The position numbers were made by a program, and so were the translations under genes. The notes under the pieces are model-generated. The model made no database searches. It had not been told where the DNA came from and worked only from the letters and a program-made list of their open reading frames with translations. Shown piece by piece: positions 13,813 to 41,277 of a DNA stretch of 64,000 bases. Every line of letters begins with the position of its first letter. Position 1 is the first letter of the stretch. This DNA comes from an uncultured Acidobacteriota bacterium (lineage in GTDB: Bacteria > Acidobacteriota > Thermoanaerobaculia > UBA5066 > Gp7-AA6), in contig CAVXOX010000005.1 in assembly GCA_963763535.1 (NCBI GenBank), positions 27,605 through 91,604 on the forward strand, written 5' to 3'.

Positions 13813-13864
13813 GTAGGGGCGGGGCTCGTCCCCGCCCGCGGGCGGCCACAAGGGCCGCCCCTAC
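13813..13864. repeat. REP-like palindromic element, copy 1 (GTAGGGGCGG...CCGCCCCTAC with two internal GC hairpins)
   Basis: Lies in the convergent intergenic region between the dehydratase and the PagL-like gene. It is near-identical to the sequence at 41222-41277. Confidence 0.8.
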
Positions 13865-13876
13865 CCTGATGGTGTA

Positions 13877-14440
13877 CTAGAAGCGCCACCCCGCGAGGAA
13901 GACGAGGCAGTTCAGGCCCAGGTTCGGCAGCGCGGTGCCCGCGTTCGACACATGGGAGTACCGCGCCTCGAACGTCCACGCCTGCGTCTCGGTCACCGCG
14001 CCGCGCAGGCCGACGGAGCCTTGAATCAGGAAGTTGAAGCGGCGGTCGATCTCGTCGAGCGCCGTCAGGTCGGTCCAGCCGAGGCCGACTCCCACGTAGG
14101 CGTACGGGCGGATCGCCGTGCGGCTCGGCGCGTTGTACCGCGCCCCGAGCGGCACGACGCCGACCATGAAACCCTCCGGCGAGAAGTAGCGCGCGAAGTG
14201 CGCCTCGGCGACGTACTCGAACCGCGGCCCGAGGCGAACACCTACGTTCGGCTCGAAGAGGAACAGGTACTCGTGCGAGCGGCCGCCGTTGGGACTGAAC
14301 GAGAAGCCGTAGCCCGCCTGGAGCCCCCATTCGGGGGGACGGCCTTCGGGAATCGGCGGCGGGGCCGAATCGTCCTGCGCCGCGGCGAAAGACGGCGCGA
14401 GCCAGAGCGCGAACGCGGCGGTCGCGAGCGAACGTCTCAT
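13877..14440 (-). CDS. Outer-membrane beta-barrel protein, PagL-like lipid A deacylase / OmpW-like fold
   Basis: Signal peptide (MRRSLATAAFALWLAPSFAAAQ), alternating hydrophobic beta-strand pattern and a C-terminal ...AGWRF. The ATG overlaps the mutM stop (ATGA). Confidence 0.6.
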   Translation of the reverse strand: MRRSLATAAFALWLAPSFAAAQDDSAPPPIPEGRPPEWGLQAGYGFSFSPNGGRSHEYLFLFEPNVGVRLGPRFEYVAEAHFARYFSPEGFMVGVVPLGARYNAPSRTAIRPYAYVGVGLGWTDLTALDEIDRRFNFLIQGSVGLRGAVTETQAWTFEARYSHVSNAGTALPNLGLNCLVFLAGWRF

Positions 14441-15336
14441 CCGCGCTTTCTCTCCTCGAGCTCCTCGAGCGTCTTCGGCCAGTCTCCCCGCAGGAGCTGC
14501 GACAGCGCGCGGTCGGCGAGGAGCTTGCCGCCCGTCTGGCACGTCGGGCAGTAGTTCGCCTCGTTCTCGGCATAGACGATCCGCTGGACCGGGGTGCCGC
14601 AGTCCGGACAGGGCTTGCCGTACCGCCCGTGCACGGCCATCCCCTCCCGAAACGCCGTGACCTTCTCCGGAAAGGCCCTCTCCGCGGCGCGCCGGAAGCG
14701 ATCCGTCCACTCGCCGAGCACGGCCCGGGCGGCGTCGTGGAGACGCCCGATCTCGCCGTCGGACAGCCGGCTCGTGAGCTTCGCCGGCGAGAGCTTCGCG
14801 CGGTGCAGGATCTCGTCGGAATACGCGTTGCCGATGCCCGAGAAGAGCCGCGGATCCGTCAGCGCTCGCTTCAACGTGTGGTTTTCCCGGAGCAGGGCGG
14901 CGCGAAACGCGGCGGCGTCCGTTTCGAGGACCTCGAGCCCGCCGCGGTCGAACGCCGACAGCGCCTCCCTTCCTCCGGCGACGTGGAGCGACGCCCGCTT
15001 CTTCGGGCTCGCCTCGGAGAGGACCAGCGACCCTCCCGGAAAGTCGAAGGCGGCGAGGGCGCCCCGGCCGCCGACGCGCACGCCGCGCCGCCGCCAGTGG
15101 AGCCGCCCCGCGACCATCAGGTGCAGCACCAGGTAGAGGTCGCCCTCCAGCGCGAAGACGATGCGCTTTCCCAGCCGCTCGATCCCGACGACCCGGCGGC
15201 CTTCCGCCTCGGACAGCGGCGGCGCGATCGACCGCAGCAGGAAGGGGCTCCCGAGGCGCACGGCCTCGAGCCGTTCGCCCACGATGCGGGGTTCGAGCGC
15301 CGTCAGGTACGCGAGGATGTCCGGCAGCTCGGGCAA
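14437..15336 (-). CDS. mutM: Formamidopyrimidine-DNA glycosylase / Nei family (Fpg)
   Basis: N-terminal MPELPD catalytic Pro and a C-terminal zinc finger (CPDCGTPV...CPTCQ). Confidence 0.85.
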   Translation of the reverse strand: MPELPDILAYLTALEPRIVGERLEAVRLGSPFLLRSIAPPLSEAEGRRVVGIERLGKRIVFALEGDLYLVLHLMVAGRLHWRRRGVRVGGRGALAAFDFPGGSLVLSEASPKKRASLHVAGGREALSAFDRGGLEVLETDAAAFRAALLRENHTLKRALTDPRLFSGIGNAYSDEILHRAKLSPAKLTSRLSDGEIGRLHDAARAVLGEWTDRFRRAAERAFPEKVTAFREGMAVHGRYGKPCPDCGTPVQRIVYAENEANYCPTCQTGGKLLADRALSQLLRGDWPKTLEELEERKRG

Positions 15337-15477
15337 GGGACGAAAGCTTAGCGTTTCCGGGCGTTCCGCCCGAGCCGAGCCGGGACCACGTCGTGGACGT
15401 TCATCTCGCGCGGTGCGGTCCTTGCAACGTCCGCACCACCCCGTCGGTCGGCCCGCCGAAGCGGCCCGCTCAGAGCG

Positions 15478-16540
15478 TCAGGCGAGCTCGGCGGGGGGCC
15501 TCGTCAGCAGGCGCGCGCGGCGGTCGCTCCGCTCGAGGGCGAGGCGCACGAGCTCGTCGAGGAGCCTCGGCAGCGGCAGGCCGCTCGCCTCCCAGAGCTT
15601 CGGGTACATCGAGATGGCCGTGAAGCCGGGCAGCGTGTTGATCTCGTTGACGAGCACGCGGCCGCTTCCGCGTTCCAGGAAAAAATCGACGCGCGCCATT
15701 CCCGACACGCCGCAGACTCGGAAGACCTCGACCGCGAGGCGCCGCGTCTCCTCGGCGACGGCGGCCGGTACGTCCGCCGGGATCAGGAGCTTCGCCTTGT
15801 CGTCGCGGTACTTGTCGTCGTAGTCGTAGAACTCGTGGCCCGGAACGACCTCGCCCGGGATCGACGCCCGCGGCTCGGCGTTGCCGAGCACCGCGCACTC
15901 GAGCTCGCGGGCGTCGATCCCCTCCTCGACGAGGACGCGCTCGTCGTAGCGGAACGCGGTCGCGGCGGCCGCGGCGAGTTCGTCCCGTCGTCGGACCTTC
16001 GTGACGCCGACGGAGGATCCCCCATTTGCCGGCTTGACGAAGAGCGGCAGCGGGAGGGCGTCGGCGCGCGCGAGGTCGCCCGGGTCCCGCAGCACGACGG
16101 CGCGGGGCGTGGGGATCCCCGCGTCGCGCAGGATCGCCTTGAAGACCCCCTTGTCCATCCCGACGGCCGACGCGGTCACGCCGGCGCCGACGTACGGCAC
16201 GCCGACCGTCTCGAGAAAGCCCTGGAGCGCGCCGTCCTCGCCCGTCGTGCCGTGGACGATCGGGAACACGACGTCGACGCGGCCGGGAGCGACCTCCGCG
16301 GGCACGACCGCCGTTCCCGTCGGATCGGCGGTGCGGAAGCGCTCCGGCACCGGGCCGGACGCGAGGAGCGCCCGCGATTCCGGGGGCGGGAGAAACCGGC
16401 CGGCCTCGCTGACCGCGATCGGGACGACGTCGTAACGCTCGGGGTCGAAGGCCGCCGCGATCGTGCGCGCGGAGACGCGGGAGACCTCCCGCTCGACCGA
16501 CTTGCCCCCGAACAGGACGGCGACGCGGAGCCGCGTCACC
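15478..16540 (-). CDS. ddl: D-alanine--D-alanine ligase
   Basis: ATP-grasp fold with Ddl motifs (VLFGGKSVEREVS, HGTTGEDGALQG, LPGFTAISMYPKLWEASG). The GTG start overlaps the serA stop (GTGA). The ORF track fuses it to serA into an 886-aa artefact. Confidence 0.9.
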
Positions 16541-18113
16541 AGCTCACCACCCGCACCTCCTCGACGGCGGGGATGCCGCGCAGGCGGGCGAGCGCCTGCT
16601 CCGGCGGCGGCGAGTCGACCGTGATCACGGCGGCCGCGCCCTCGCTCTTCCCGCGCGCGAGCGAGAAGTTGGCGATGTTGACGCGCGCCTCCCCCAGCAC
16701 GGTGCCGACGCTGCCGACGACTCCGGGCACGTCGCGGTTGCGCAGGAAGACGACCGTCCCCTCGGGCCGGAACTCGAGCGGCAGGCCGTCGACCTGGACG
16801 ACCCGCGCGTCGCGGCCCGAGTACATGGTCGCGTCGCCGCTCGCCGTCTTCCCCGCGCCCGAAACCGAGAGGCGGATCGAGCGGGCGTAGGTGCCGGCGT
16901 CCTCGTGGCGCGTCTCGGAGACGGCGAGGCCGCGGTCCTGCGCGAGGTACAGCGCGTTGACGTAGTTGACCGTCTCCGGCGTGCGTTTCTCGAGCGCGCC
17001 CTTGACCGCGGCGACCGCGATCGGCCGCAGCAGGTCCTCCGGCAGCCCCCACGTCTCGACCGCGAGGCGCTGCAGGTGCCCGCCGACGAGGCTCGCGAGA
17101 AAGTGCGCCGTGCGCTCGGCGAGCCGCATCCAGCCGGATGCGCCGTCGGCGTCCTTGGGCCCGCGAAACGGCAGGTTCACGGCGGGCACGTAGGCGGCGC
17201 CCGCGAGCGCCTCGAGCAGCGCCTCGACCGTCTGGATCGAGACGCGCTCCTGCGCCTCGACCGTGGAAGCGCCGAGGTGCGGCGTCGCGACGACGTTCGG
17301 GAGCTTCGGCAGCGGATCCGCCGGATCGGGCGGCTCGGGGTCGAACACGTCGAGCGCCGCTCCGGAGAGGCGGCCCTCGACGAGCGCGGCGCGCAGGGCC
17401 TCGCGATCGACGAGGCTCCCCCGCGCCACGTTGACGAGCACCGCGCCGCGCTTCATGCGCCCGATCTCCGTGGCGCCGAGGAGCGGCTTGCCCGCCCCCG
17501 TCGCGGTCGAGTGCAGCGTGACGACGTCCGACTGCTCGAGCAGCTCGTCGAGGGCGACGAGCGGCACGCCCATCTCGCGGGCCTTCTCGGCCGGCAGGTA
17601 CGGGTCGTGGCCGAGGAGGCGCGCCTCGAAGGCGCGGGCGCGCGCCGCGACCCGGGAGCCGACCTGCCCGAGGCCGACGATGCCGACGGTCTTGCCGGCG
17701 AGCTCCGTGCCGACGAACTTCGATTTCTCCCACTTGCCCTGGGCCATGGATGCGGCGGCCTCGGGGATGCGGCGCAGCAGGGCGAGCAGCACCGCGAACG
17801 TGTGCTCGACCGCCGACACGACGTTGCCGGTCGGCGAGTTGAGGACGAGCACGCCGCGGGCGGAGGCCGCCGGGACGTCCACGTTGTCGACGCCGACGCC
17901 CGCCCGCCCGACGACCGTCAGCCTCGGCGCCGCCGCGAGCAGGGCGGCATCGACCTTCGTCGCGCTCCGCACGAGCAGCGCGTCGGCGTCGGCGAGCGCG
18001 GCGAGGAGCGTCTCCCGGGGCGCGCCGGCGAGGTCCACGACCTCGTGTCCCGCCTTCCTGAGCAGGTCGAGCCCGGCCGGCGAGATCTTCTCGGCGACGA
18101 GGACGCGGCTCAC
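16536..18113 (-). CDS. serA: D-3-phosphoglycerate dehydrogenase with a C-terminal ACT domain
   Basis: 2-hydroxyacid dehydrogenase NAD-binding motif (GIVGLGQVGSRVA), catalytic region and an ACT-like C-terminus. Confidence 0.92.
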   Translation of the reverse strand: MSRVLVAEKISPAGLDLLRKAGHEVVDLAGAPRETLLAALADADALLVRSATKVDAALLAAAPRLTVVGRAGVGVDNVDVPAASARGVLVLNSPTGNVVSAVEHTFAVLLALLRRIPEAAASMAQGKWEKSKFVGTELAGKTVGIVGLGQVGSRVAARARAFEARLLGHDPYLPAEKAREMGVPLVALDELLEQSDVVTLHSTATGAGKPLLGATEIGRMKRGAVLVNVARGSLVDREALRAALVEGRLSGAALDVFDPEPPDPADPLPKLPNVVATPHLGASTVEAQERVSIQTVEALLEALAGAAYVPAVNLPFRGPKDADGASGWMRLAERTAHFLASLVGGHLQRLAVETWGLPEDLLRPIAVAAVKGALEKRTPETVNYVNALYLAQDRGLAVSETRHEDAGTYARSIRLSVSGAGKTASGDATMYSGRDARVVQVDGLPLEFRPEGTVVFLRNRDVPGVVGSVGTVLGEARVNIANFSLARGKSEGAAAVITVDSPPPEQALARLRGIPAVEEVRVVSW

Positions 18114-19219
18114 GCCGCCGCCTCGGCCGCGCTCTCATCGAGAGCGGCGAGGAGGGCCTCGAGCGACGCGAGATCCACGTCTCCCATGTGCCCGATGCGG
18201 AAGGTGGACGCCTTCCACTTCCCGTAGCCGCCGCCGATCGTGAAGCCGCGCTCCTTGACCCGCGCCACGAGCGCTTCGGCCGACACGCCCGTGACCGGCT
18301 TCAGGCACGAGACCGTCCACGGCCGGAAGCCCTTCGGCGCGACGGGAGCGTGGCCGCGCGCCGCCGCCCAGGCCTCGACACGCGTCCGCAGCGCGTCGTG
18401 CCGCGCCCAGCGGCCCTCGATCGTCTCCGCGAGGATGTGGTCGAGCTGCACGTCCAGCGCGAAGAGGTGCGGCGTCGACGGCGTGTACGGCGTCTGGTGC
18501 TTCGCGGCGAAGGACTCGGCCTCCGAGATCCGCAGGTAGTGGGCGCGGGACCGCTCCTTCGCGCGGGCCCGGTAGCGCCCGGACGCGAACGCGACGCCGA
18601 GGCCCGGGGGCAGCGCGAGCGCCTTCTGCGAGCCCGAGAGGGCGAAGTCGAGACCCCACGCATCGCACTCGACGGGCGAACCCGCGAGCGAGGTCACGAC
18701 GTCGGCGAGCACGAATGCGTCCGAAGCCTCGCGCACGGTCCGCGCGATCGCGGCCAGGTCGTTGAGCGTCCCCGTGGACGTCTCCGAGTGGACCACGGTG
18801 ACGGCGTCGTAACGCGCCTTCGCGAGCGCGCGGCGCACGTCGTCCGGATCGACCGGCGTCCCCCAGGGCGCCTCGAGCACGTCCGTCGCGTAACCGAGGT
18901 CCCGCGCGCAGGCCGCCCACCGCTCCGAGAAGGCGCCACACGTGACGGCGAGGACTCGCTCGGGCGCGAGATTCAGCAGCGCCGCCTCCCAGAGACCCGT
19001 CGCGGCCGAGGTCGCGGTGAAGACGAATCCGTCGGTCCGGAAGACCTGCGCGAGGCGCGGCGGGATGTCGGCGTAGAGGTCCGCGAAGGCCTTGCCGCGG
19101 TGGCCGATCGCCTCGTGCGCCATCGCCTGCCGCACGGCGTCGCGCACCCACACCGGTCCCGGCAGGAAGAAGCGCACCTGTCCCGGCCTGCCTCCGGTCG
19201 AATCGAACGCCGTCGTCAT
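18110..19219 (-). CDS. Class V aminotransferase (serine-pyruvate / phosphoserine aminotransferase type), probably the SerC-equivalent of this serine operon
   Basis: AGT/SerC-type class V fold with the PLP lysine in ...SGSQKALALPPG. The stop overlaps the serA start. Confidence 0.8.
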   Translation of the reverse strand: MTTAFDSTGGRPGQVRFFLPGPVWVRDAVRQAMAHEAIGHRGKAFADLYADIPPRLAQVFRTDGFVFTATSAATGLWEAALLNLAPERVLAVTCGAFSERWAACARDLGYATDVLEAPWGTPVDPDDVRRALAKARYDAVTVVHSETSTGTLNDLAAIARTVREASDAFVLADVVTSLAGSPVECDAWGLDFALSGSQKALALPPGLGVAFASGRYRARAKERSRAHYLRISEAESFAAKHQTPYTPSTPHLFALDVQLDHILAETIEGRWARHDALRTRVEAWAAARGHAPVAPKGFRPWTVSCLKPVTGVSAEALVARVKERGFTIGGGYGKWKASTFRIGHMGDVDLASLEALLAALDESAAEAAA

Positions 19220-19231
19220 GCGAGCCGGATT

Positions 19232-19891
19232 CTACTTGCGGCCGGCGTAGTCCGCGAGAAAGGCGGAAAGCTCCGTGATCCGATCGAGCAGAGCGTCCGG
19301 CGCGAGCGCTTCGAGCGCTTCGCGCGGCCGCGAGCCGCCCGGCACCAGGACGATCGCGCAGCCGCCCGCCCGGGCGAACTCGAAGTCGACCTCCATGTCG
19401 CCGACGACCACGGTCTCCTCCGGCCGCGCGCCCGCGTCGGCGAGGAGGCGCCGGAGCATCGTCGGATCCGGCTTCGGCGGCGTCGCGTCGTCCGGTCCCC
19501 CGATGCCGCGGAAATGATGCGCGACCCCCTTCGCGTCGAGGATCAGGCGCGAGAAGCGCGGGGGTTTGTTCGAGGCGAGGGCCATCGCGTGACCCGACGC
19601 GGCGAGCGCCTCCAGGGTCTCGCGCGCGCCCGGCAGGAGATGCGATCGCTCGACGGCGACCTCGGGATACCGCTCGCGGAAGAGCCGCACGCCCTCCGTC
19701 GCGCGCGCGGGTCCGACCGCCTGCTCGAGGAGCCGCTCGAGGCCGTGGCCGACCATCGCGCGCACGGCGTCCGGCGTCGGCGCCGGCTCGCCGAGCCGCG
19801 CCATCGCGTACGCGAGCGCGTCGCCGATCGCCGCGTATCCGTCGATCAGGGTCCCGTCGAGATCGAAGACGACGAAGGGCGGCCGGCTCAA
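19232..19891 (-). CDS. HAD-superfamily hydrolase (phosphoglycolate-phosphatase-like)
   Basis: Motif I (FDLDGTL) and motif III (VVVGDMEVD) are present. A TTG start was chosen that overlaps the upstream stop. The long N-terminal extension in the ORF track is unsupported. Confidence 0.7.
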   Translation of the reverse strand: MSRPPFVVFDLDGTLIDGYAAIGDALAYAMARLGEPAPTPDAVRAMVGHGLERLLEQAVGPARATEGVRLFRERYPEVAVERSHLLPGARETLEALAASGHAMALASNKPPRFSRLILDAKGVAHHFRGIGGPDDATPPKPDPTMLRRLLADAGARPEETVVVGDMEVDFEFARAGGCAIVLVPGGSRPREALEALAPDALLDRITELSAFLADYAGRK

Positions 19892-21585
19892 GCCGTCTTC
19901 CGGCTCCCGCGCCCGCTCTCGCGGCTCTCGCGATCGAGGCCCGCCGCCCGCAGCACCGTCTCGACGATCGCCTCCCAGTCGCCGAACGACACGGTCGGCA
20001 CCGAGCCCTGGAAGGGCCCGTCGGAGATGCGCGCGACCGGCTCGACGACCTCGGGCCGCGAGACGCCCGTCCTCACGACCTCGATCTTCGGCATCGCGAG
20101 CGACTTGTACCCCTCGATCAGGACGAGGTCGCAGCCGCGGAACTCGCGGCGCAGGATCTCCGCGAGCGCCTCCTCCTCGCCGAAGCGCCGCGCCGTGGTC
20201 CGCGCCGGAGTCACGAGCGCGGCGACCCCGGCGCCGGCGGCGGCATGGCGCTGCGAGTCCTTCCCGGGCGTGTCGTCCTCGACGTCGCGGGTCGTGTGCT
20301 TGAGCGTCCCCACGACGAGCCCGCGCTCCTTCAGGCGCGGCACGAGCTCGACGAGGATCGACGTCTTCCCGGAGTCGTGGCCGCCCACGAAGGCGACGAC
20401 GGCGGGACGGCGGTCCGGATACAGCAGGTGCGGCTCGCGGCGCGGCCCGAAGTGACGGGCCGCCTCGAAGTGGCGGGCGATCTCGCCGCGCAGGCCCTCG
20501 CCCTCCTCGACCGCGCGGCGGAAGTCGGCCGAGCCCGTCAGCAGATCGATCGCCGGCCGCTCGTCGTACTCGTAGGGCTCCTTGCGCCAGCGGAAGTCGA
20601 GCGGCCCCGCCTTGCGAGCCGCCTCGATGACCCGCAGCCCGGTCTGGAACGGCCGGAAGGCGGCGCGGTCCGTCACGTGGAGGCGCGCGCCGCCGCAGGC
20701 CTTTCCGGCGTGCTTGTCGAACATCGGACGGAACTGCGCCGGGGCGAAGCGCACGCCCGCCAGCGCCAGCCCGTTCAGCGCGTCCGAGAAGGCGAACGCG
20801 TCGAGCCACGGCGCGCCGAAGACCTCGAAGGGCCGCGTCGTGCCGCGCCCCTCGGAGAGGTTCGTGCCCTCGAGGAGGCACATGCCCGGATAGGCGAGAG
20901 CCGTGTCGGTCGTCGGCATGTTCGGCGAGGGCGGCGTCCACGGCAGCCCGGCCTCCTCGTACGTGACGTCCCGGGCCCAGCCGGCGGCGGGCATCACGAC
21001 GAGATCGAGATCGAGCCGCCGCTCCGCCGCGAAGAGCCGCGCGAGCTCGCCCGCGGTCATGCCGTGGCGCACCGGGATCGGGTGGAGACCCACGAACGTG
21101 AGGTAGCCCGCCGAGGCGGGCGCGCCCTCGACCTCGCCGCCGATCGGGTTCGGCCGGTCGCACACGACGAAGCGCAGGCGCGCGGCGGCGCAGACCTCCA
21201 TCGCGAGGAGCATCGTCCACACGTAGGTGTAGTAGCGGCTCCCGACGTCGGCGACGTCGAACACGATCGCCTCGAGATCGGCGACGTGCTCGCGCTTCGG
21301 CTTGAGGCTCTCGGCCGTGGGCCCGTAGAGCGACACGACGGGCAGGCCCGACGGCGCGTGGACCGAGCCCTGCACCGCCTCCATGTACACCGCGCCGCCC
21401 TCGAGCCCGTGCTCGGGCCCGAAGAGCCGCACGAGCCGAACGTTCGGCGCCGCGCGGAGCGCCTTCCAGGTGGGCACTCCGGACGACGTCATCCCCGAGC
21501 CGTTGGTGATCAGGCCGACACGCTTGCCCGCGACGGGCCAGAGCCTCTCCAAGAGGACGTCGATGCCGAAACGCACGTCGGGCAT
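19888..21585 (-). CDS. In-frame fusion of DUF1343 (NamZ-type exo-beta-N-acetylmuramidase family, about 395 aa) with a molybdopterin-guanine dinucleotide biosynthesis MobB-like P-loop domain (about 165 aa)
   Basis: The N-terminal DUF1343 part has conserved blocks (GLITNGSG, CDRPNPIGG). The C-terminal part has a MobB-type Walker A (VGGHDSGKTSIL) and LIEGYK. No stop codon or plausible internal start separates the two parts. Confidence 0.75.
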   Translation of the reverse strand: MPDVRFGIDVLLERLWPVAGKRVGLITNGSGMTSSGVPTWKALRAAPNVRLVRLFGPEHGLEGGAVYMEAVQGSVHAPSGLPVVSLYGPTAESLKPKREHVADLEAIVFDVADVGSRYYTYVWTMLLAMEVCAAARLRFVVCDRPNPIGGEVEGAPASAGYLTFVGLHPIPVRHGMTAGELARLFAAERRLDLDLVVMPAAGWARDVTYEEAGLPWTPPSPNMPTTDTALAYPGMCLLEGTNLSEGRGTTRPFEVFGAPWLDAFAFSDALNGLALAGVRFAPAQFRPMFDKHAGKACGGARLHVTDRAAFRPFQTGLRVIEAARKAGPLDFRWRKEPYEYDERPAIDLLTGSADFRRAVEEGEGLRGEIARHFEAARHFGPRREPHLLYPDRRPAVVAFVGGHDSGKTSILVELVPRLKERGLVVGTLKHTTRDVEDDTPGKDSQRHAAAGAGVAALVTPARTTARRFGEEEALAEILRREFRGCDLVLIEGYKSLAMPKIEVVRTGVSRPEVVEPVARISDGPFQGSVPTVSFGDWEAIVETVLRAAGLDRESRESGRGSRKTA

Positions 21586-21598
21586 TGTCCGAAGGATA

Positions 21599-22105: not shown

Positions 22106-22125
22106 ACCGTTAATATAGACCGCCC

Positions 22126-23148: not shown

Positions 23149-23152
23149 CGCC

Positions 23153-24053: not shown

Positions 24054-24061
24054 GGCGCCGC

Positions 24062-25200: not shown

Positions 25201-25263
25201 TCGAAGCGGATGCTACATCCCCCGGCAGGCTCGCGCGCGAGGACGACGGCGAAGGCGACCCGG

Positions 25264-26109: not shown

Positions 26110-26163
26110 GTGTCCTCCTAGGGTCGAGACGGACGGCGGGAAGAGGGGAACGGGGACTCCGGC

Positions 26164-29351: not shown

Positions 29352-29426
29352 AGGACTCGAATGATACGTCGTGGCCGGCCCTCGCGGCGCGGGGCCTCAT
29401 ATAAACTGAAGACCGGAGCCGTTCCG

Positions 29427-31459: not shown

Positions 31460-31495
31460 AGGCCTCGAACAGCGCGGGACTTCCCGCCCGCGCTC

Positions 31496-31593
31496 AAAGG
31501 GATCCCTCGCTGCACTCGGGATGACAATTTGTTTTTCGGTTCCGCAGATGCGGCTTGTCATCCCGCAGGAGCGCAGCGACGAGGGATCCCTTT
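31496..31593. repeat. 98-bp imperfect palindrome: outer arms AAAGGGATCCCTCGCTGC / GCAGCGACGAGGGATCCCTTT, inner perfect 10-bp arms GGGATGACAA / TTGTCATCCC, and a T-rich 27-nt centre
   Basis: Read directly from the sequence. It lies between the E1 beta stop (31459) and the coxG start (31633) and is a candidate terminator or regulatory RNA structure. Confidence 0.7.
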
Positions 31594-31632
31594 GAAGTCT
31601 CGCTGCCGCTCGCCTGCGATATAACGCCCTCC

Positions 31633-32082: not shown

Positions 32083-32121
32083 GCGGTGTAGACTCCCGCC
32101 CGTTCGCACGGGAGGTTTTCC

Positions 32122-32586
<465 letters not shown>

Positions 32587-32596
32587 AGGAGGCGCC

Positions 32597-34950: not shown

Positions 34951-34953
34951 CAC

Positions 34954-35822
34954 ATGTATTCGGAGAGCTTCGATTACTTCCGCCCGAAGACCCTCGCCGA
35001 GGCATCGGCGCTGCTGAAGAAGCACAGGGGCGCGCGTCTCCTGGCCGGCGGCCACAGCCTGCTCCCCGCGATGAAGTTCCGCCTCGCGACCCCGAAGGCG
35101 CTCGTCGACATCGGCGCGATCAAGGGCCTGTCGGGCATCGCCCCGCGCGGCAAGTCGACGTGGATCGGCGCGATGACCGTCCACGCGGAGGTGGCGGGGT
35201 CGAAGCTGCTCCGGAAGTCCTGTCCGCTCCTGCCGGAAGCGGCGGCGCAGATCGGCGACCCGCAGGTGAGAAACCGCGGCACGATCGGCGGCTCGATCGC
35301 CCACGCGGATCCCGCCGCGGACTACCCGACGGCGCTCGTGGCGCTCGGCGCGACGGTTCTGGCGCGCGGCCCCCGCGGCGAGCGCAAGATCCCGGCCGAG
35401 GATTTCTTCGTCGACCTCTTCACGACGGCGCTGAAGCCGGGCGAGATCGTCACGGGCGTTCTCGTTCCCGTGTTCGGCAAGGGCACCGGCGCCGCGTACC
35501 TGAAGCACCCCCACCCCGCCTCGCGTTACGCCGTCGCGGCGGCCGCCGCCATCGTCGACGTCGCGAACGGCGTCTGCACGCGCGCGATCCTGGTGATCGG
35601 CGGCGTCTCCGCGACGCCGGTGCGCGTCCTGCGCGCCCAGGAGGCGCTCGTCGGCAGGAAGCCCGACGCCGCCCCCATCCAGTCGGCCGCCGCGCAGGTG
35701 GAGGCGCTGGTCCCCGACCCATGGGCGACGTCTATGCCTCGGGCGAGTTCCGGATCCACCTCGCGTCGGTCCTCGCGAAGCGGGCGCTGACGGCGGCCTT
35801 CGAGCGGGCGAAGAAGGCCTAG
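34954..35822 (+). pseudogene. coxM: FAD-binding medium subunit (CoxM-like) with a -1 frameshift near the C-terminus
   Basis: FAD-binding fold (LAGGHSLLP...GTIGGSIAHAD). The frame changes at the CCC run 35718-35720. The authentic C-terminus (PMGDVYASGEFRIHLASVLAKRALTAAFERAKKA) continues in the 0-frame to 35822. Confidence 0.75.
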
Positions 35823-35875
35823 CGCGGCGCCCCCGGCGCGATCGGGGTCACCGAACCGGACGATAATCGCTTTCC

Positions 35876-36901
35876 ATGCGCGACGTTCTCGACGACATCG
35901 AGCGGTGGCGCTCCGAGGGAAAGCCCGTGGCGCTCGCGACCGTGGTCGCGACATGGGGTTCGGCGCCGCGCGCGGTCGGCGGGAAGATGGCCGTGGCCGA
36001 TGGGAGGCACATCGCGGGCTCGGTCTCCGGCGGCTGCGTCGAGAACGCGGTGGCCGAGGCGGCCAGCGAGGTTCTCAAGACCGGTAAGCCGAGGCTCCTG
36101 AGGTTCGGCGTCTCCGACGATACGGCCTGGAGCGTCGGGCTCGCCTGCGGCGGCGCGATCGAGGTGTTCGTCGAGCGGCTCGCCGACTCGGCCTACGGCC
36201 TCGTCCGGGATGCGCTAAGGGCGGAGCGCTCTGTGGCCGTGACGACCGTCATCAACGGACCCGCGGACGCCGTGGGGCGCAAACTCGCGATCTCCGCCGA
36301 CGGGCGCACCGCCGGCGATCTCGGCGACCCGATCGATCGCGAGACGCGGGCCGCGCTCGCCGACGGTCGCAGCCGCCGGGTCACGATCGGAGAAGACGAG
36401 ATCTTCGTCGACGTGCTCCTCCCCTCCCCTCGCCTCGTGGTCGTCGGCGGCGTGCACATCGCGGTCGCGCTCGTGAAGCTCGCGCAGGCGCTCGGCTGGC
36501 GGACTGTGCTCGTCGATCCGCGGGAGGCGTTCGGCAACCGCTCGCGCTTTCCCGACGTGGACGACATCGTCTGGGACTGGCCGGACGCCGCCCTCGCGAA
36601 GCTCTCCCTGAACGAAGACACCGCGGTCGCCGTGCTGACCCACGACCCGAAGCTCGACGACCCCGCGGTCTCGGCCGCGCTCGCGAGCCCCGCCTTCTAC
36701 GTCGGCGCGCTCGGGAGCAGCCGGACGCAGGAGAAGCGCCGCAAACGCCTCCTCGCCGCCGGGCCTGACGGAAGGAGAGCTCTGGCGCGCCTCCACGCGC
36801 CGATCGGCCTCGACCTCGGCGGCCGCGCGCCGGAGGAGATCGCGCTCTCGGTCATGGCCCAGATCGTGGCGGCGCGCCACGGGAAGGCGAACGCTCCGTG
36901 A
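35876..36901 (+). CDS. xdhC: XdhC/CoxI family molybdoenzyme maturation (Mo-cofactor insertion) protein
   Basis: XdhC_CoxI N-terminal domain and XdhC_C Rossmann-like domain (VVVGGVHIAVAL). Confidence 0.85.
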   Translation: MRDVLDDIERWRSEGKPVALATVVATWGSAPRAVGGKMAVADGRHIAGSVSGGCVENAVAEAASEVLKTGKPRLLRFGVSDDTAWSVGLACGGAIEVFVERLADSAYGLVRDALRAERSVAVTTVINGPADAVGRKLAISADGRTAGDLGDPIDRETRAALADGRSRRVTIGEDEIFVDVLLPSPRLVVVGGVHIAVALVKLAQALGWRTVLVDPREAFGNRSRFPDVDDIVWDWPDAALAKLSLNEDTAVAVLTHDPKLDDPAVSAALASPAFYVGALGSSRTQEKRRKRLLAAGPDGRRALARLHAPIGLDLGGRAPEEIALSVMAQIVAARHGKANAP

Positions 36902-36904
36902 GCG

Positions 36905-37228
36905 TCAGTGGCCCTTCGGCTCCGGCTTGCCGTAGAGCTTGCGCAACTCCGACTTCGCCCGCATCAGCCGGTTCTTCTGGGTCTTCGGGAGGCCCCTGCC
37001 CGCGCGGTTGACGTAGAAAGTCAGCATCGACATCGCCGACGCGAACGGACCGGCCTTGCGGCGGCCGCTCTTCTCGGCGGAGCGCTTGAGCGACTTCGCG
37101 ATCTCCTTCGGGTCCGTGAGCGTGAAGACGCGATTCTCCAGATCGAGCGCGTTGCTCTCGCGGGTCACGCGCTGCGACCAGCGTCCATCCCCGGCCCGTT
37201 TCGCGGCCGTCCGTTTCGTTGCGGGCAT
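36905..37228 (-). CDS. DUF3175-domain protein
   Basis: Family-typical sequence (RWSQRVT...ALDLE...FT...SAMSMLTFYVNRAG...KLYGK). The ATG overlaps the stop of the upstream quinone oxidoreductase gene. Confidence 0.7.
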   Translation of the reverse strand: MPATKRTAAKRAGDGRWSQRVTRESNALDLENRVFTLTDPKEIAKSLKRSAEKSGRRKAGPFASAMSMLTFYVNRAGRGLPKTQKNRLMRAKSELRKLYGKPEPKGH

Positions 37229-38148
37229 CAGGCCACCCTCAGCACGACCTTGCCGTGCGAGCGTCCGTGTTCGTTGAGGTCCATGGCGCGGGAGGCGCGG
37301 GAGAGCGGCAGGACCTTCGTGATGTGGGGCCGAACGACGCCCTTCTCGACGAGCCGCGCGATCTGTCGCAGGTCCCGGGTGTCGTAGCGCATCGCGAACT
37401 CGACCGCACGGACCCCGGCCCGGCGCGCCGCAGCCCGATCGATCTCGCCGATCAGGTTGATCAGCATGCCGCCCTTCTTCAGCACGCCCCAGGAGCGCTT
37501 CTGCGTGGCGCCGCCGATCGGGTCGATCACGACGTCCACGCCCGCGACCAGCTTCTCGAAGCGCTGGCGGTGGTAGTCGATGACGACGTCGACGCCGATC
37601 CGCTTCAGGAACGCGAAGCTCGACCGGCTCGCCGTCCCGATCACCCGGGCGCCCTTCCACAGCGCGAACTGCGCCGCGAAGGAGCCGACGCCGCCGCTCA
37701 CGCCGTGGATGAGGAAGACCTTCTTCGGAGACGCGCGCGCGGTGTCGACGACCATCTGCCAGGCCGTCAACGCCGGCATGGGAATGGAGGCGGCAACCAC
37801 GAAGTCGAGCGACCGGGGCATCCGCACGAGGTGGCGCAGCGGCACGACCGCGAATTCCGCGAAGCTGCCCCACGTCTCGCCGAAGACCCGGTCTCCCTCG
37901 CGGAAGCGGGACCGGGATCCGGGACCCGTCTCCTCGATGATCCCGGCAAAGTCCTGGCCGAGCGTGAGGGGCACGCGGTCGGCGCCCTTCGGGTTGTAGA
38001 TCTTCCGGACGACCATCCAGTCCACCGGATTGACGGCCGCGGCGCGCACCCGAACGAGCGCGGCGCCTTTCCTCGGGCGGGGCACGGAAGTGTCCTCGAC
38101 GCGGACCTTCGCGGAAGGCCCAAAAGCGTGGATGCGGGCGGCTCTCAT
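37228..38148 (-). CDS. NADPH:quinone reductase / zinc-type alcohol dehydrogenase (MDR superfamily)
   Basis: Medium-chain dehydrogenase/reductase (MDR) fold with the Rossmann motif GVSGGVGSFAAQFA. The true start is the ATG at 38148 (MRAARIHAFGP), not the longer ORF in the track. Confidence 0.85.
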   Translation of the reverse strand: MRAARIHAFGPSAKVRVEDTSVPRPRKGAALVRVRAAAVNPVDWMVVRKIYNPKGADRVPLTLGQDFAGIIEETGPGSRSRFREGDRVFGETWGSFAEFAVVPLRHLVRMPRSLDFVVAASIPMPALTAWQMVVDTARASPKKVFLIHGVSGGVGSFAAQFALWKGARVIGTASRSSFAFLKRIGVDVVIDYHRQRFEKLVAGVDVVIDPIGGATQKRSWGVLKKGGMLINLIGEIDRAAARRAGVRAVEFAMRYDTRDLRQIARLVEKGVVRPHITKVLPLSRASRAMDLNEHGRSHGKVVLRVA

Positions 38149-38229
38149 GCGCGACGACCTCCCGCGAAAGAGCGCTGCAAGGCGAATGCCGGGCACCCGG
38201 TTTGCAGCCTGGAGCGAGGGAGGTTTTCG

Positions 38230-38475
38230 ATGCCGAGAGGCGACAAGAGCAAGTACACGGACAAGGAGAAGCGGCAGGCCGACCACATCGAGGAGGGCTA
38301 CGAGGAGCGCGGCGTGCCGGAGAAGGAGGCCGAGCGGCGCGCGTGGGCGACCGTGAACAAGGTCCACGGCGGCGGCGAGAAGCCGGGCGGCGGCGGCTAC
38401 GGCAAGGCCGAGGACCGCGAGCCGATGCGCAAGGGCGGCCGAATCGGCGGAAAGAGCCACGGCGATGGCCAGTGA
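38230..38475 (+). CDS. Small hydrophilic stress-type protein (Gly/Lys-rich, KGG-like)
   Basis: 81-aa ORF preceded by a GGGAGG ribosome-binding site. The sequence is MPRGDKSKYTDKEKRQADHIEEGYEERGV...RKGGRIGGKSHGDGQ. Confidence 0.55.
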   Translation: MPRGDKSKYTDKEKRQADHIEEGYEERGVPEKEAERRAWATVNKVHGGGEKPGGGGYGKAEDREPMRKGGRIGGKSHGDGQ

Positions 38476-38614
38476 GCGTCAGCGGGCCGCGGCCCGCCGC
38501 AACATCAAGAAGGCGGCTTCGGCCGCGCGGAAGAAACGTACGATCGCGCACCTGCCGAAGAAGACCCGCACAGCCCTGGGGAAAAAGGGCGCGTCGGTGA
38601 GAAAGAAGAAGTAA
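38465..38614 (+). CDS. Candidate 49-aa highly basic small protein (MASERQRAAARRNIKKAASAARKKRTIAHLPKKTRTALGKKGASVRKKK). It is not in the supplied ORF track.
   Basis: An ATG overlaps the preceding stop (ATGGCCAGTGA). The open frame of 49 codons ends at a TAA. About 45% of residues are Lys/Arg. Confidence 0.3.
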   Translation: MASERQRAAARRNIKKAASAARKKRTIAHLPKKTRTALGKKGASVRKKK

Positions 38615-38617
38615 GGC

Positions 38618-40321
38618 TCAGCGCGAGCCGAGCGCGATGAGCGCCCGGCGCAGGCGAGGGTGCGCGGCGAGAGCGCGGAGGTAGCTCGTTTCGGACCGCG
38701 CCGACTTCGCGTGGACCACGTCGAGCAGGCCCTCTTTCTCCTCCCGAGTCCAGCGACCCAGGCCGGGCACGAGGTCGAGCGCCAGCGCGAAGTCCTCGAA
38801 CGCCTTCGCGTCGCGCCGCGGAATCCGCGAGGCGGACCGACCCAGCGCGGCCGCGACGCGGCGGACGGCCCGCTCGCGGTGCCGCGCCGCGTCGCCGGCG
38901 GAGCGCTCGCGCATCGCCCGGTTGACCGCGAGCCCGATGCGCCGGACGTGGAAGCGGTCCCAGTCTCCGTGCGGCGCGCCGGGCGCCTCGTAGAGCAGGT
39001 TGTGCGTCACGAGCCGCTCGAGCGTGCGCCGCGAGGACCGGTACGTCGGTTCGGCCGCGATGCGGCGCTCCTCGCGCGCGAGCCGCGCGGCGACGCCGCG
39101 GTCGGTCGGCCGGAAGCCGAGCTTCCGGTAGAACCAGAACGCGCCCGAGTCGATCGCCTCGGCGTTCTCGAAGCCGAGCTGGTAGGGATCGATCGAGAAG
39201 GACGTCACGCCGAGCGCGTCGCGGTGGAGCTTCAGGACCTGGGCGTAGATCCAGGCCGACTCACCCTCGCGGAACGTGTAATACATGTTGAAGCCGATCT
39301 CGAGGCGGTCGAAGAACGCAAGCCCCTCGATGTAGCCGATCGGCACGGCGTTCTTGACGACGAATCCGCCGTACGCCGCGCGGAGCGGCAGCCGCCGCCC
39401 GGGCAGGACGCCGACGAGGAAGAGCTCGACGCCGCGGCCGGGGCGCGCCGAGACGACCGTCGCGGGATCCGCGTGGGTGAACGTGTAGAACTCGCGGTAG
39501 CGGGCCGCCGTCGTCTCGCGCACCATGTCGCAGACCCGCTCGCCCTCGCGCTGCGAGAGCCGGCGCAGCGGCAGGTGCGGCGCGGACAGGACGGCGTCCA
39601 GCGACACGTCCCGGCGCGCGAGCAGCGGCGCGTCGTGGAAGAACGGCCGCGGTCCCGGCCGGCGCATCTTCGTCCGCGAGGCGCGGCCTCCCCCCAGCCG
39701 CCAGGCGATCGGAAGCCCGAGCGAGTCGAATCGCTCGGCCCGCGCGTCGCGCGGCTGCGGGAGGCGCTCGTACCGCTCGAGCAGCCAGCGCAGATCCGCG
39801 CGCCGGGATCCCGCCGCGGCGCCCAGCCACTCGAGATACGGCACGTTGGCGTCGGCGAGCGCCTCCTCCTCGAGAAGCGGCACGAAGGCGGGCCAGGTCG
39901 CGCGCATCCGGTCGCCCTCGTCCGCGGCGTCCCAGTCGATCCAGACGCTCCGGGGGTGTCGCCGCGCGAGCCAGCGCGCGAGATCGAAGGAGAAGTCCGT
40001 GCCGAGCGTCGTGCCGGCGACGCCGGCGGCCTCCGGCGCGTCGAAGACGGAGAGGTCCTCGCCGGCCTCCTCGAGACGCGCCACGCGCCGCTCGAAGGCC
40101 GACAGCAGGCGCTCGGCGAGCGCGAGCACGCGCGCGTCGTGCGGGTACGCGCGGAGGAAAAGCACGGCCTCGTGGAGGCGCAGGAGGCGCTCGGCGTCGG
40201 GCGCGGCCACGCGCGCGGCCTGTCGCAGCCAGCGCGCCGCGTCGCGCGCGCCCGGCCGCCGGTGGCGCGCCGCCTCGAGACGTTCGAGGACCGTGTCGAA
40301 GCGGCCCGGCACGGCGCGCAT
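38618..40321 (-). CDS. Conserved hypothetical protein (567 aa); family not recognised
   Basis: Start chosen at ATG 40321 (MRAVPGRFDTVLERLE). The upstream part of the 734-aa ORF overlaps the divergent LolA-like gene. The composition is non-repetitive. Confidence 0.5.
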   Translation of the reverse strand: MRAVPGRFDTVLERLEAARHRRPGARDAARWLRQAARVAAPDAERLLRLHEAVLFLRAYPHDARVLALAERLLSAFERRVARLEEAGEDLSVFDAPEAAGVAGTTLGTDFSFDLARWLARRHPRSVWIDWDAADEGDRMRATWPAFVPLLEEEALADANVPYLEWLGAAAGSRRADLRWLLERYERLPQPRDARAERFDSLGLPIAWRLGGGRASRTKMRRPGPRPFFHDAPLLARRDVSLDAVLSAPHLPLRRLSQREGERVCDMVRETTAARYREFYTFTHADPATVVSARPGRGVELFLVGVLPGRRLPLRAAYGGFVVKNAVPIGYIEGLAFFDRLEIGFNMYYTFREGESAWIYAQVLKLHRDALGVTSFSIDPYQLGFENAEAIDSGAFWFYRKLGFRPTDRGVAARLAREERRIAAEPTYRSSRRTLERLVTHNLLYEAPGAPHGDWDRFHVRRIGLAVNRAMRERSAGDAARHRERAVRRVAAALGRSASRIPRRDAKAFEDFALALDLVPGLGRWTREEKEGLLDVVHAKSARSETSYLRALAAHPRLRRALIALGSR

Positions 40322-40358
40322 GCTACTCGATGTAAGCTTCCGCGCTCGGAGGAAATGC

Positions 40359-41225
40359 ATGTCCGCTCGAAAGTTCCCGCTCCTCCTCGGCTTGGCGGCC
40401 GCCCTCGCTCTCGCGCCCCGCGCGGACGCGCAGACTCCCGCCCCGGCGCCCGCCGCGACGGCTCCGGCGCCGACGCCCGCGCCTCCGAAGCCGACCCCGA
40501 CGCCCTCCGCGCAGGCGCTGAAGGAGGGCAAGGAGCTCTTCGCGAAGTTCGTGCAGGCTCTCGGCGGACCGGAGAAGGTCCGCAAGGTCCACGACGTGTG
40601 GACGCGCGGGCTCGTCACGGCCAAGACGCCGGAAGGCGACATGAGCATGGACGTGCAGACGTCGATGGTCTTCCCCGACCGGATCTCGCAGCAGGTCGAC
40701 GCGCCGTTCGGCCGGATGGCGATGGTCGCGACGCCCTCCGGCGCGTTCATCGTCGGGCCGAACGCGGTGCAGGACCTTCCGCCCGGGATGAAGGAGGAGC
40801 TGTTGCGCCAGGTGCGGCGCATCCCCCTCCTCCTCGCGCAGAAAAAGGACGATCCGAAGCTCGTGGTCGCGGCCGCCGGAACGGAGAAGATCGGCGACGT
40901 CTCCGCGCGGATCCTCGACGTCTCCTACGAGGGCGCCTCCGTGCGCTGGTATCTCGACCCGACCACGTACCGGATCGTGCGCTCCCAGCACACCTCGGTC
41001 GGCCCTCAGGGGGAGGCGGTCATCGTCTCGGACTACTCGGACTACAAGATCGTCGACGGCTACCCGGTCGCGTTCCACCTCGAGGTCGCGACCAACGGCC
41101 AGAAGGACCAGACGCTCGCCCTCGAGGAGTGCAAGATCAACCCGGGCGTCGAGCCGAAGCTCTTCGAGAAGCCGGTGATGCCGACTCCGGTTCCCACGTC
41201 GGCGCCGGCGCCGGGCGCCAGGTAG
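40359..41225 (+). CDS. Secreted LolA-like / outer-membrane lipoprotein-sorting-fold protein (DUF4292-like)
   Basis: Signal peptide (MSARKFPLLLGLAAALALAPRADA) followed by a Pro/Thr/Ala linker and a beta-rich domain. The stop codon TAG lies inside REP-like element copy 2. Confidence 0.55.
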   Translation: MSARKFPLLLGLAAALALAPRADAQTPAPAPAATAPAPTPAPPKPTPTPSAQALKEGKELFAKFVQALGGPEKVRKVHDVWTRGLVTAKTPEGDMSMDVQTSMVFPDRISQQVDAPFGRMAMVATPSGAFIVGPNAVQDLPPGMKEELLRQVRRIPLLLAQKKDDPKLVVAAAGTEKIGDVSARILDVSYEGASVRWYLDPTTYRIVRSQHTSVGPQGEAVIVSDYSDYKIVDGYPVAFHLEVATNGQKDQTLALEECKINPGVEPKLFEKPVMPTPVPTSAPAPGAR

Positions 41226-41277
41226 GGGCGGGGCTCGTCCCCGCCCGCGGACGGGCGGCCGCAAGGGCCGCCCCTAC
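41222..41277. repeat. REP-like palindromic element, copy 2
   Basis: GTAGGGGCGGGGCTCGTCCCCGCCCGCGGACGGGCGGCCGCAAGGGCCGCCCCTAC. It is about 90% identical to the copy at 13813-13864 and again sits between convergent genes. Confidence 0.8.

Follow-up and report, generated by a model that had tools for sequence, protein, structure and literature searches.

Paired GTAG-type REP hairpins in convergent gene gaps of a Thermoanaerobaculia bacterium, probable dimers of a RAYT-associated family

The REPs of Escherichia coli have rather long, bulged stems and a REP-associated tyrosine transposase (RAYT) of subclass 2.2, and in the BIMEs of this species there are gyrase or IHF sites as well as defined linker motifs. 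In the REPINs of Pseudomonas, two inverted REPs are said to replicate together, with a single-copy RAYT as the proposed mobiliser; REPINs reportedly have spacers of tens of bases, fold into one long hairpin and form species-specific, vertically inherited families. A survey of 24 families (Di Nocera, De Gregorio & Rocco 2013; PMC3733652) describes GTAG REPs as stem-loops of 20-40 bp with GTAG at one end, including sub-families with compensatory stem changes and stems with G.T pairs. According to the same survey they form head-to-head dimers with the GTAG termini outside, sometimes 1-5 bp apart, prefer convergent or unidirectional gene gaps and are associated with RAYTs. Its GTAG repeats come from Proteobacteria, Cyanobacteria, Chloroflexi and the PVC group, and in Acidobacteria it reports only TIR-flanked tyrosine transposases and no GTAG REPs. 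Quentin et al. (2018; PMC6006769) described the REPs that go with RAYT subclass 2.4: they have a GT[AG]G foot with three consecutive basal G-C pairs, and there are 'canonical long' REPs and a 'double foot' form, GTAG ... CTAC. The RAYTs have the motifs NH[ILFV]H, WQ and YIxNNP, REPs also lie in frame within tnpA_REP, and the distribution over phyla is patchy.

The window, the whole 64-kb stretch of DNA analysed here, contains two elements, copy 1 at 13813-13864 (52 nt) and copy 2 at 41222-41277 (56 nt), each of them a head-to-head inverted pair of 25-nt units bounded by GTAG ... CTAC. All four units start with GTAG and have an 8-bp stem beginning with the foot GGG/CCC and a 5-nt loop, CTYGY. 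In copy 1, unit A (13813-13837, plus strand; GTAG plus stem GGGCGGGG/CCCCGCCC, loop CTCGT) is separated by the 2-nt spacer GC (13838-13839) from unit B (13840-13864, minus strand, read as GTAGGGGCGGCCCTTGTGGCCGCCC), in which the inner stem pairs are swapped from GG/CC to CC/GG. Copy 2 has an identical unit A (41222-41246, plus strand), the 6-nt spacer GCGGAC (41247-41252) and a unit B read as GTAGGGGCGGCCCTTGCGGCCGCCC (41253-41277, minus strand). The internal hairpins are GGGCGGGG-CTCGT-CCCCGCCC and GGGCGGCC-ACAAG/GCAAG-GGCCGCCC. Self-comparison of the window gave 91.07% identity between the copies across 56 columns, with a 4-nt spacer indel and a single A/G change in the second loop as the differences, and exact GTAGGGGCGG matched four times in the window, one per strand at each end of either copy. 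An earlier sequence-only reading of this DNA had proposed two copies of 52 and 56 nt, about 90% identical and bounded by a 10-bp inverted repeat, and was correct on these points.

A scan of the window with the unit pattern returned eight matches with up to three mismatches, as against 1.57 expected, and only the four real units matched with none or one. The copies are 27 kb apart and intergenic, and their flanks are unrelated and do not align to each other, so they are not part of a larger duplication, which the sequence-only reading had named as an argument against a dispersed element. The same reading had taken the elements to be the only long non-coding sequence shared within the window, and here it erred, because 31558-31588, a segment of 31 nt, has a second occurrence at 49831-49860. 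No family was matched anywhere in the window at Rfam gathering thresholds. An attC site, a CRISPR repeat and a riboswitch were also considered and discarded, as they had neither a supporting feature nor an Rfam match.

With 25-nt units, a GTAG foot, covarying stems, head-to-head arrangement and positions in convergent gaps, the elements resemble the GTAG REPs of the 2013 survey; with their GGG/CCC foot and GTAG ... CTAC boundaries, they also resemble subclass 2.4. We conclude that they are, with high probability, head-to-head dimers of GTAG-superfamily REPs, of the 'canonical long REP' type of RAYT/TnpA_REP subclass 2.4, probably spread by a RAYT. Unlike the 'double foot' form, which is one long hairpin with two feet, each window element consists of two complete hairpins, 2 or 6 nt apart, and, unlike in subclass 2.4 loci with their transposase, the window has REPs only and no RAYT. 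The elements share with the REP/BIMEs of E. coli the GTAG foot and hairpin, the inverted pairs and the extragenic 3′ location, but their stems are perfect and of 8 bp rather than longer and bulged. Like Pseudomonas REPINs they are inverted REP pairs; they differ in spacers of 2-6 nt and in a unit common to many phyla. The kind is already known, and the window copies are ordinary members of the GTAG REP superfamily. The description of the element as uncharacterised stands for the lineage and fails for the kind, since PMC3733652 and PMC6006769 together already give the GGG foot, the 'double foot' and the link to subclass 2.4.

The minimum-free-energy structure was a pair of separate hairpins, as the sequence-only reading had described, in both DNA folds and in all but one of the four RNA folds; in the remaining RNA fold it was a single long hairpin. 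The exchange of inner stem pairs between units (GG/CC versus CC/GG) likewise favours two separate hairpins over the REPIN fold. Folding energies ranged from -41.6 to -44.2 kcal/mol, in a sequence of 72% G+C, and were 1.0-2.0 standard deviations better than those of dinucleotide shuffles; folding energy alone (z -1.0 to -2.0) is thus not significant, and the structural support comes from covariation.

Covariation was evaluated with 67 distinct units, of which 64 came from loci that had been selected independently of the DNA motif, and counted on units ending in CCC; some sub-families have loops of 6-7 nt, which a fixed 8-bp/5-nt scheme on GTAGGGG 25-mers places out of register. In this set, 94.6% of cells were paired, compared with 75.6% in shuffles, and all five variable stem pairs covaried. 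There were 114 double-change cells, against 33.6 expected and with none of 500 shuffles as high, and the covariation score was 0.518, against 0.150 in shuffles (0/500 equalled it). GTAG was invariant in 67/67 aligned family units, which had been selected on GTAGGGG. At the two stem pairs left unconstrained by the search pattern we counted 53 G.T wobbles versus 5 A.C mismatches, indicating that the hairpin is read on the GTAG strand. The base preceding GTAG was a pyrimidine in 93% of family units; it is G for one unit in each window copy, which does not favour our identification.

At least 120 GTDB genome stretches contained the exact unit pattern, and the hosts among the matches listed were Acidobacteriota (Thermoanaerobaculia), Chloroflexota, Bacteroidota, Clostridia, Planctomycetota, Proteobacteria, Elusimicrobia and Parcubacteria, some of the listed loci having only 27-28% G+C. 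The pattern was also present in 88 IMG/VR contigs. A head-to-head partner lay within 130 nt of 96 of 274 units; spacers ranged from 1 to more than 80 nt, that of 2 nt (as in copy 1) being the commonest and that of 6 nt (as in copy 2) recurrent, and lone units also occurred. The A-GC-B dimer of copy 1 recurs at four further loci (L033, L081, L091 and L103), which is compatible with replication of the dimer as a unit. Among the matches listed, related Acidobacteriota MAGs contributed multiple loci each, L006, L027, L033 and L046 from CAWDUQ010000002.1 and L072 and L091 from DAHUXD01. An identical 48-nt dimer is common to a Thermoanaerobaculia acidobacterium and the Firmicute Flavonifractor plautii, and the same G+C-rich 25-mer is present in genomes of 27-45% G+C. 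In Flavonifractor scaffolds, runs of N begin within the same element. Density in the lineage is low, with two dimers in the 64 kb of the window and none in 94.5 kb of control loci from relatives, and this weighs against the preferred explanation.

Units of the family are physically linked to transposase genes. The Y1_Tnp genes concerned match NCBIfam NF047646, 'REP-associated tyrosine transposase', with 81.7 bits (cut-off 80), and a search of solved structures with the family RAYT gave 4ER8, the E. coli TnpA_REP, as the only match. A RAYT gene is flanked by clusters of units at one genome locus (L007), contains units at two (L050 and L062) and has one unit just 3′ of it at a fourth (L077). Using a three-sequence C-terminal protein alignment, and selecting 80 metagenome loci by peptide motifs only, we found GTAGGGG hairpins in 50 of these 80 RAYT-centred loci, amounting to 136 units in 283 kb, mostly less than 100 nt from the gene or within it; the comparison, the 94.5 kb of relatives' control loci, had 0 units.

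The RAYTs of these family loci, as opposed to the window, carry the motifs MPNH[IVFL]H, LWQRNYY and REYIxNNP; their HUH and Tyr motifs are separated by a variable insert, with REP copies in frame. With matching RAYT motifs, in-frame REPs and a spread over many phyla, family loci agree with the description of subclass 2.4 (PMC6006769). Among the best 120 RAYT homologues, the REP-encoded peptides VGAGLVPA and ATTRVAPT were present in 80 and 99, respectively, and source names included RayT, Chloroflexus, Roseiflexus, KSB1 and Azoarcus. When a RAYT with the VGAGLVPA insert served as query, 7935 of 8000 scored candidates reached E <= 1e-20, pointing to a very large family. Several results run counter to the preferred explanation: no Thermoanaerobaculia name appeared among the best 120 homologues, all four genome loci with a RAYT belong to groups other than Acidobacteriota, and neither tblastn nor a profile HMM found a RAYT in the window (64 kb) or in the loci of relatives (about 140 kb). 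The 88 viral-catalogue loci likewise yielded no RAYT.

The perfect 10-bp terminal inverted repeat, GTAGGGGCGG/CCGCCCCTAC, and the small size of the element could also suggest a MITE of a DDE transposon. We regard this as extremely improbable, because neither copy has a target-site duplication (flanking bases GAGCC|...|CCTGA and GCCAG|...|GGGTT), lone units exist, dimer spacers vary as widely as noted above, the hairpin and not the termini is the repeat unit, and the associated gene is a HUH/Tyr transposase.

We compared both sites with the corresponding regions of relatives. In the relative L209, which is 98% identical to the window in amino acids and 91.7% in nucleotides over 13 kb, copy 2 is unchanged, being 100% identical together with the 23 nt after the element, and the 45 nt immediately 5′ of it contain 7 changes. 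The gene gap that holds copy 2 is reduced to 3 nt in L213 and filled with unrelated sequence in L210, L211, L212 and L214, and the L210 genome has the REP elsewhere (L072, L091). At the position of copy 1, L295 has a single unit, the gap is only 5 nt in L296 and the genes overlap in L297 and L298. Empty sites, a lone unit and unrelated spacers in relatives indicate that the elements are lineage-specific insertions. The occupied sites also contain extra non-REP bases absent from the empty ones, 12 + 26 nt for copy 1 and 23 nt for copy 2, so more was involved than the clean insertion of a dimer, a complication for the preferred explanation. Taken with the inverted GTAG hairpin pairs, the occurrence of units in many genomes and the RAYT linkage, these empty sites support the sequence-only proposal of a small dispersed element of REP/BIME type.

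An alternative is that the REPs are orphans or relics, the RAYT that inserted them having been lost, or never having been present if the dimers came with transferred DNA, and that the dimers are now immobile and kept only for a useful symmetrical hairpin at convergent 3′ ends. The lack of a RAYT in the window and in relatives' loci and the low density in the lineage agree with this, as does the loss of REPtrons by deletion in REP-bearing species, noted in the 2013 survey; the complete identity of copy 2 and the following 23 nt in L209, where the surrounding 13 kb differs by 8.3%, would fit purifying selection. However, the lineage sample comprises some 200 kb and a RAYT is normally single-copy in several megabases, so that its absence says little; moreover, stems are perfect and agree with the family consensus in 4/4 units, as in young or maintained copies, and occupancy varies among relatives at both sites, pointing to recent activity. 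We therefore consider relic REPs unlikely, if plausible, and favour dimers of a mobile REP family.

Codon-position G+C profiles and Pfam matches agree that both copies lie between convergent 3′ ends, as the sequence-only reading had it, 0-27 nt from the stop codons. Upstream of copy 1, a gene for a PALP-domain (pyridoxal-phosphate) enzyme has its 3′ end at 13786, with a maximal ORF on the plus strand from 12185; its true start is probably near 12900, judging from the position of the domain at aa 230-518 of this ORF and from orthologues called in relatives with 237-289 aa. The convergent gene, for a PagL-like outer-membrane protein (13877-14440, minus strand), has its stop 12 nt from copy 1. 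Copy 2 is preceded by the gene for a 288-aa secreted protein (40359-41225, plus strand), whose stop codon is the TAG at 41223-41225, within the GTAG of unit A, and faces that of a LIP-family secretory lipase (41301-42671, minus strand; start uncertain, orthologues of 399-441 aa), whose stop is 23 nt away. The TAG of GTAGGGG had indeed been recognised as the stop codon of the upstream gene; calling that gene LolA-like was not borne out, as the 288-aa protein matches neither Pfam nor NCBIfam and only some distant homologues bear the JGI name 'outer membrane lipoprotein-sorting protein'.

This location between convergent 3′ ends, and the strong G+C-rich folds on either strand, could also be expected if the hairpins had evolved in place as bidirectional terminators or mRNA stabilisers, with no mobile REP family involved. 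The dispersal data already contradict such an origin, which we judge very improbable: the 25-nt unit, and even the 48-nt dimer, is also present in other phyla and in unrelated loci, there is an association between the units and RAYT genes, and the corresponding sites of close relatives are gaps of 3-5 nt. Furthermore, neither hairpin is followed by a T-run on either strand, and terminator scans report no site at the elements, by which we also rejected an intrinsic (Rho-independent) terminator.

In the mechanism that we propose for mobile REP dimers, a RAYT, an HUH/Tyr single-strand DNA transposase present elsewhere in the genome or formerly in the lineage, would recognise the hairpin and GTAG on single-stranded DNA and cleave and rejoin there, so that units and dimers would be copied to new intergenic sites; recognition, cleavage and rejoining have been shown for E. 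coli TnpA_REP and would operate here by analogy. The comparison of sites shows that both dimers reached their present positions recently in the ancestry of the lineage, followed by stable inheritance. On transcription, a dimer in a convergent gap would become part of both mRNAs at their 3′ ends, where, as there is no U-tract, it would not be a classical intrinsic terminator and would more probably form a stable hairpin, blocking read-through or exonucleases. The hairpin of copy 2, one base past the stop codon, could also affect translation termination.

More tentatively, REP sequences may travel between phyla together with the transposase, the window dimers being offspring of such an import and not members of an ancient vertical family. 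RAYT genes of subclass 2.4 carry their own REP dimer in frame, and so one transferred gene would bring both enzyme and template substrate. We hold this to be possible, if doubtful. If true, a transferred gene of this subclass could start a REP population in a naive genome, and co-transfer would explain the shared 48-nt dimer, the G+C-rich 25-mer in genomes of low to intermediate G+C content (27-45%) and the viral-catalogue contigs.

The window thus contains an ordinary REP doublet, for which a new mechanism is unnecessary. For annotation, GTAG ... CTAC hairpin pairs are a flag that marks convergent 3′ ends, with copy 2 overlapping a stop codon, and such repeats break assemblies and create spurious ORFs. 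Unlike the 2013 survey, which lists for Acidobacteria only TIR-flanked tyrosine transposases, we find a GTAG REP in Thermoanaerobaculia and in other Acidobacteriota genomes, which adds Thermoanaerobaculia to the recorded hosts of GTAG REPs. The wider pattern of near-identical units across phyla, REPs within RAYT genes, a pyrimidine preceding GTAG and wobbles on the GTAG strand alone could help to explain the specificity of RAYTs and how horizontal transfer shapes REP families.

The two elements at 13813-13864 (copy 1, 52 nt) and 41222-41277 (copy 2, 56 nt), which a sequence-only reading had assigned to a dispersed REP/BIME type, are each a head-to-head dimer of subclass-2.4-type GTAG REPs, in support of that reading. 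Both copies were recovered as described when the sequence was re-read. Both are made up of two inverted 25-nt units, unit A (GTAG-GGGCGGGG-CTCGT-CCCCGCCC) and, on the other strand, unit B (GTAG-GGGCGGCC-CTTGT/CTTGC-GGCCGCCC); the spacer between them is GC (2 nt) in copy 1 and GCGGAC (6 nt) in copy 2. The exact sequence GTAGGGGCGG is found four times in the window, marking either end of each copy on opposite strands. Units A and B have their two innermost stem pairs exchanged, GG/CC versus CC/GG, a compensatory change. Self-comparison of the window gave 91.07% identity over 56 columns; the copies differ only in the central spacer, longer by four bases in copy 2, and at one A/G position of the second loop. 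The possibility that the pair belongs to a larger duplication was checked: the flanks could not be aligned in either orientation, indicating that the copies are not the visible part of one. A search of the window for GTAG plus a hairpin returned the four REP units and four others without match to any repeat family, compared with about 1.7 per randomised sequence (first-order Markov; range 0-6).

Gene calls based on codon-position G+C profiles and Pfam placed copy 1 between a PALP enzyme ending at 13786 (+ strand) and a PagL-like outer-membrane protein (13877-14440, - strand), and copy 2 between a secreted 288-aa protein (40359-41225, +) and a LIP lipase (from 41301, -). From the orientation of these four genes, both copies fill gaps between convergent genes, as first noticed, and the stop codon of the 288-aa protein is indeed the TAG within the first GTAG of copy 2. 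No T-run follows either element on either strand, terminator scans reported no site at either, and Rfam had no match anywhere in the window. Homologues of the proteins encoded on either side carry names that assign the window to Thermoanaerobaculia (Acidobacteriota). Each element probably now serves both convergent transcripts as a 3' hairpin. REPs reportedly stabilise upstream mRNA against 3' exonucleases, and are said to be able to reduce translation when a stop codon is no more than about 15 nt away, an effect that would apply to copy 2.

The claim that the REP doublet is the sole non-coding sequence shared within the window did not hold, because a second intergenic repeat, unrelated to REP, lies at 31494-31595. 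Spanning about 102 nt, it is an inverted repeat with imperfect arms that include perfect segments of 16 nt and 11 nt. A second copy of the right arm, TCATCCCG(C)AGGAGCGCAGCGACGAGGGATC, lies on the opposite strand at 49831-49860 (30/31 bases); the relative L209 also has both copies. Separately, three direct repeats at 45009-45329 (120-nt spacing, 64-73% identity), inside a large kinase/TPR gene (42540-46316), look like ordinary TPR-repeat coding periodicity.

Of four RNA folds, three had the two internal hairpins originally described, formed separately, as the state of lowest energy, as did both DNA folds; in RNA, a three-way structure closed by the GTAG/CTAC ends can form. Folding energies (-41.6 to -44.2 kcal/mol) were only 1-2 sd better than those of shuffles for this DNA of 72% G+C, so that thermodynamics alone do not show selection for structure. 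We examined covariation in all GTAGGGG...CCC 25-mers from loci chosen by protein motif, with no use of the DNA pattern, together with three window units. Stem cells paired in 94.6% of cases, as compared with 75.6% in column shuffles, and covariation was found at all five variable stem pairs, with 114 double-change cells against 33.6 expected; these values were approached by none of 500 shuffles and by no slid register. Units selected by the DNA motif had 484 Watson-Crick, 53 G.T and 5 A.C cells in the two stem pairs that the search pattern does not fix, indicating that wobbles are tolerated on the GTAG strand only. This bias points to a REP structure that would be read on the GTAG strand, as single-stranded DNA or RNA. 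Among the 274 units in the matches listed from genomes and viral contigs (L001-L208), a pyrimidine precedes GTAG in 253 of 271. G follows the hairpin in 176 of 271, and one unit in each window copy has the rare G before GTAG.

Scanning GTDB species genomes with GTAGGGGCGGNNCTYGYNNCCGCCC yielded at least 120 stretches, Acidobacteriota having the largest share among the matches listed. Other hosts in that list include Chloroflexota, Planctomycetota, Proteobacteria, Elusimicrobia, Parcubacteria, Bacteroidota (Hymenobacter isolates) and Clostridia (Flavonifractor plautii ATCC 29863, Pseudoflavonifractor), among others, and some unit-bearing loci have only 27-45% G+C, at which such a 25-mer cannot originate by chance. 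In the Firmicute isolate F. plautii ATCC 29863 (L103 4242-4289, NZ_JH417718.1), 48 nt are identical to copy 1, up to an N run; this match was noted together with L052 and L068. The N runs in L103 and L068 start inside the element, as if repeats break assembly or were masked. The unit is also present in 88 IMG/VR contigs (L121-L208, catalogued as viral; 150 GTAGGGG hairpins in 684 kb), none of them encoding a REP-associated tyrosine transposase (RAYT). Among the matches listed in L001-L208, 96 of 274 units have a head-to-head partner within 130 nt, most commonly with a 2-nt spacer, as in copy 1, and five times with 6 nt, as in copy 2. The consensus of partner units is GTAGGGG, a complementary but variable stem core, loop CTYGY and CCC. 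In L074 (~5070-5160), L082 (~7500-7600) and L116 (~3630-3720), the 3' half is tandemly reiterated after a complete unit (for instance, CCTTGTGGCCGCC three times), which suggests slippage or repeated partial copying.

All-against-all clustering of the ORFs of the 120 genome loci listed revealed one small cluster adjoining the units. It corresponds to Pfam Y1_Tnp and NCBIfam NF047646, 'REP-associated tyrosine transposase' (L007, 81.7 bits; cut-off 80), and its sole relative of solved structure is E. coli TnpA_REP (4ER8). The RAYT gene of L007 has head-to-head dimer clusters on both sides, and this layout is that of a classical REPtron. In L062, the HUH motif and the GxFKS/Tyr region of the RAYT gene are separated by an in-frame dimer (6855-6925); units occupy the matching position in L050 (2140-2274), where the gene appears split into two overlapping ORFs that differ in frame. 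As an independent test, 80 metagenome loci (L215-L294) were picked by two RAYT peptide motifs only, and 50 of them had GTAGGGG hairpins. The 136 units, found in 283 kb, mostly lie at most 100 nt upstream of the C-terminal domain, i.e. inside the gene. Control loci, five from relatives of the window, had no unit in 94.5 kb. Some in-frame dimers form long tandem arrays encoding GATTRD or GAPTxGAPT repeats (in-frame dimers are seen, e.g., in L217, L224, L225, L234, L248 and L262). The peptides VGAGLVPA, which unit A of the window encodes, and ATTRVAPT occur in 80 and 99 of 120 RAYT homologues, respectively. Searches by tblastn and with a profile HMM built from 80 RAYTs found no RAYT gene in the window or at the relatives' loci, no RAYT-bearing genome locus among the matches listed is acidobacterial, and the best 120 matches of the RAYT protein search include no Thermoanaerobaculia name.

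All these features, REP-inside-RAYT included, are already in two papers. Di Nocera et al. 2013 (PMC3733652) defined the GTAG-tagged REP superfamily, with 24 families in Proteobacteria, Cyanobacteria, Chloroflexi and the PVC group, compensatory sub-families, G.T pairs, head-to-head dimers sometimes just 1-5 bp apart, preferential location in convergent or unidirectional gaps, and a link with RAYTs; from Acidobacteria, it reported TIR-flanked tyrosine transposases only. Quentin et al. 2018 (PMC6006769) described TnpA_REP subclass 2.4 (motifs NH[IFV]H, WQ and YIxNNP), with 'canonical long' REPs bearing three G-C pairs at the stem foot, 'double foot' GTAG...CTAC forms, REPs in frame between the HUH and Tyr motifs, and a patchy distribution across phyla, ascribed to horizontal transfer.

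Orthologous loci were found via homologues of two less conserved flanking proteins. At the copy 2 site, L209 (98% amino-acid identity; 91.7% nucleotide identity over 13 kb) shares the identical 56-nt element and the next 23 nt, with seven differences in the 45 coding bases directly upstream. The site holds 3 nt between genes in L213 and unrelated spacers in L210, L211, L212 and L214; the source of L210, MAG DAHUXD01, has REP at L072 and L091, so that its absence at L210 is local, not genomic. At the copy 1 site, the genes lie 5 nt apart in L296 (94%) and overlap in L297 and L298, and L295 (95%) has a single unit with loop ACAAG, which may adjoin a decayed partner. Thus, both sites are polymorphic for presence/absence among close relatives. 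The secreted-protein gene ends in aagTAG in all copy 2 site relatives except L214 (...ccg TAA), including the REP-less L210-L213, indicating that the G-TAG foot of unit A pre-existed; its coincidence with the unit could reflect chance or target preference. Occupied sites hold 23-38 additional non-REP bases, and the events were therefore not clean insertions of the dimer alone.

We conclude that the elements are recent insertions in the ancestry of a Thermoanaerobaculia lineage and most probably products of RAYT activity. The E. coli TnpA_REP reportedly cleaves and rejoins REP single strands in vitro. That a RAYT and its in-frame REP were co-transferred between phyla is a speculative and rather unlikely scenario; if true, it would account for a Firmicute and an acidobacterium having identical dimers. 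The proposal that the element is uncharacterised holds for this lineage alone: its kind was known, and Thermoanaerobaculia is a new listing among the host lineages of GTAG REPs.
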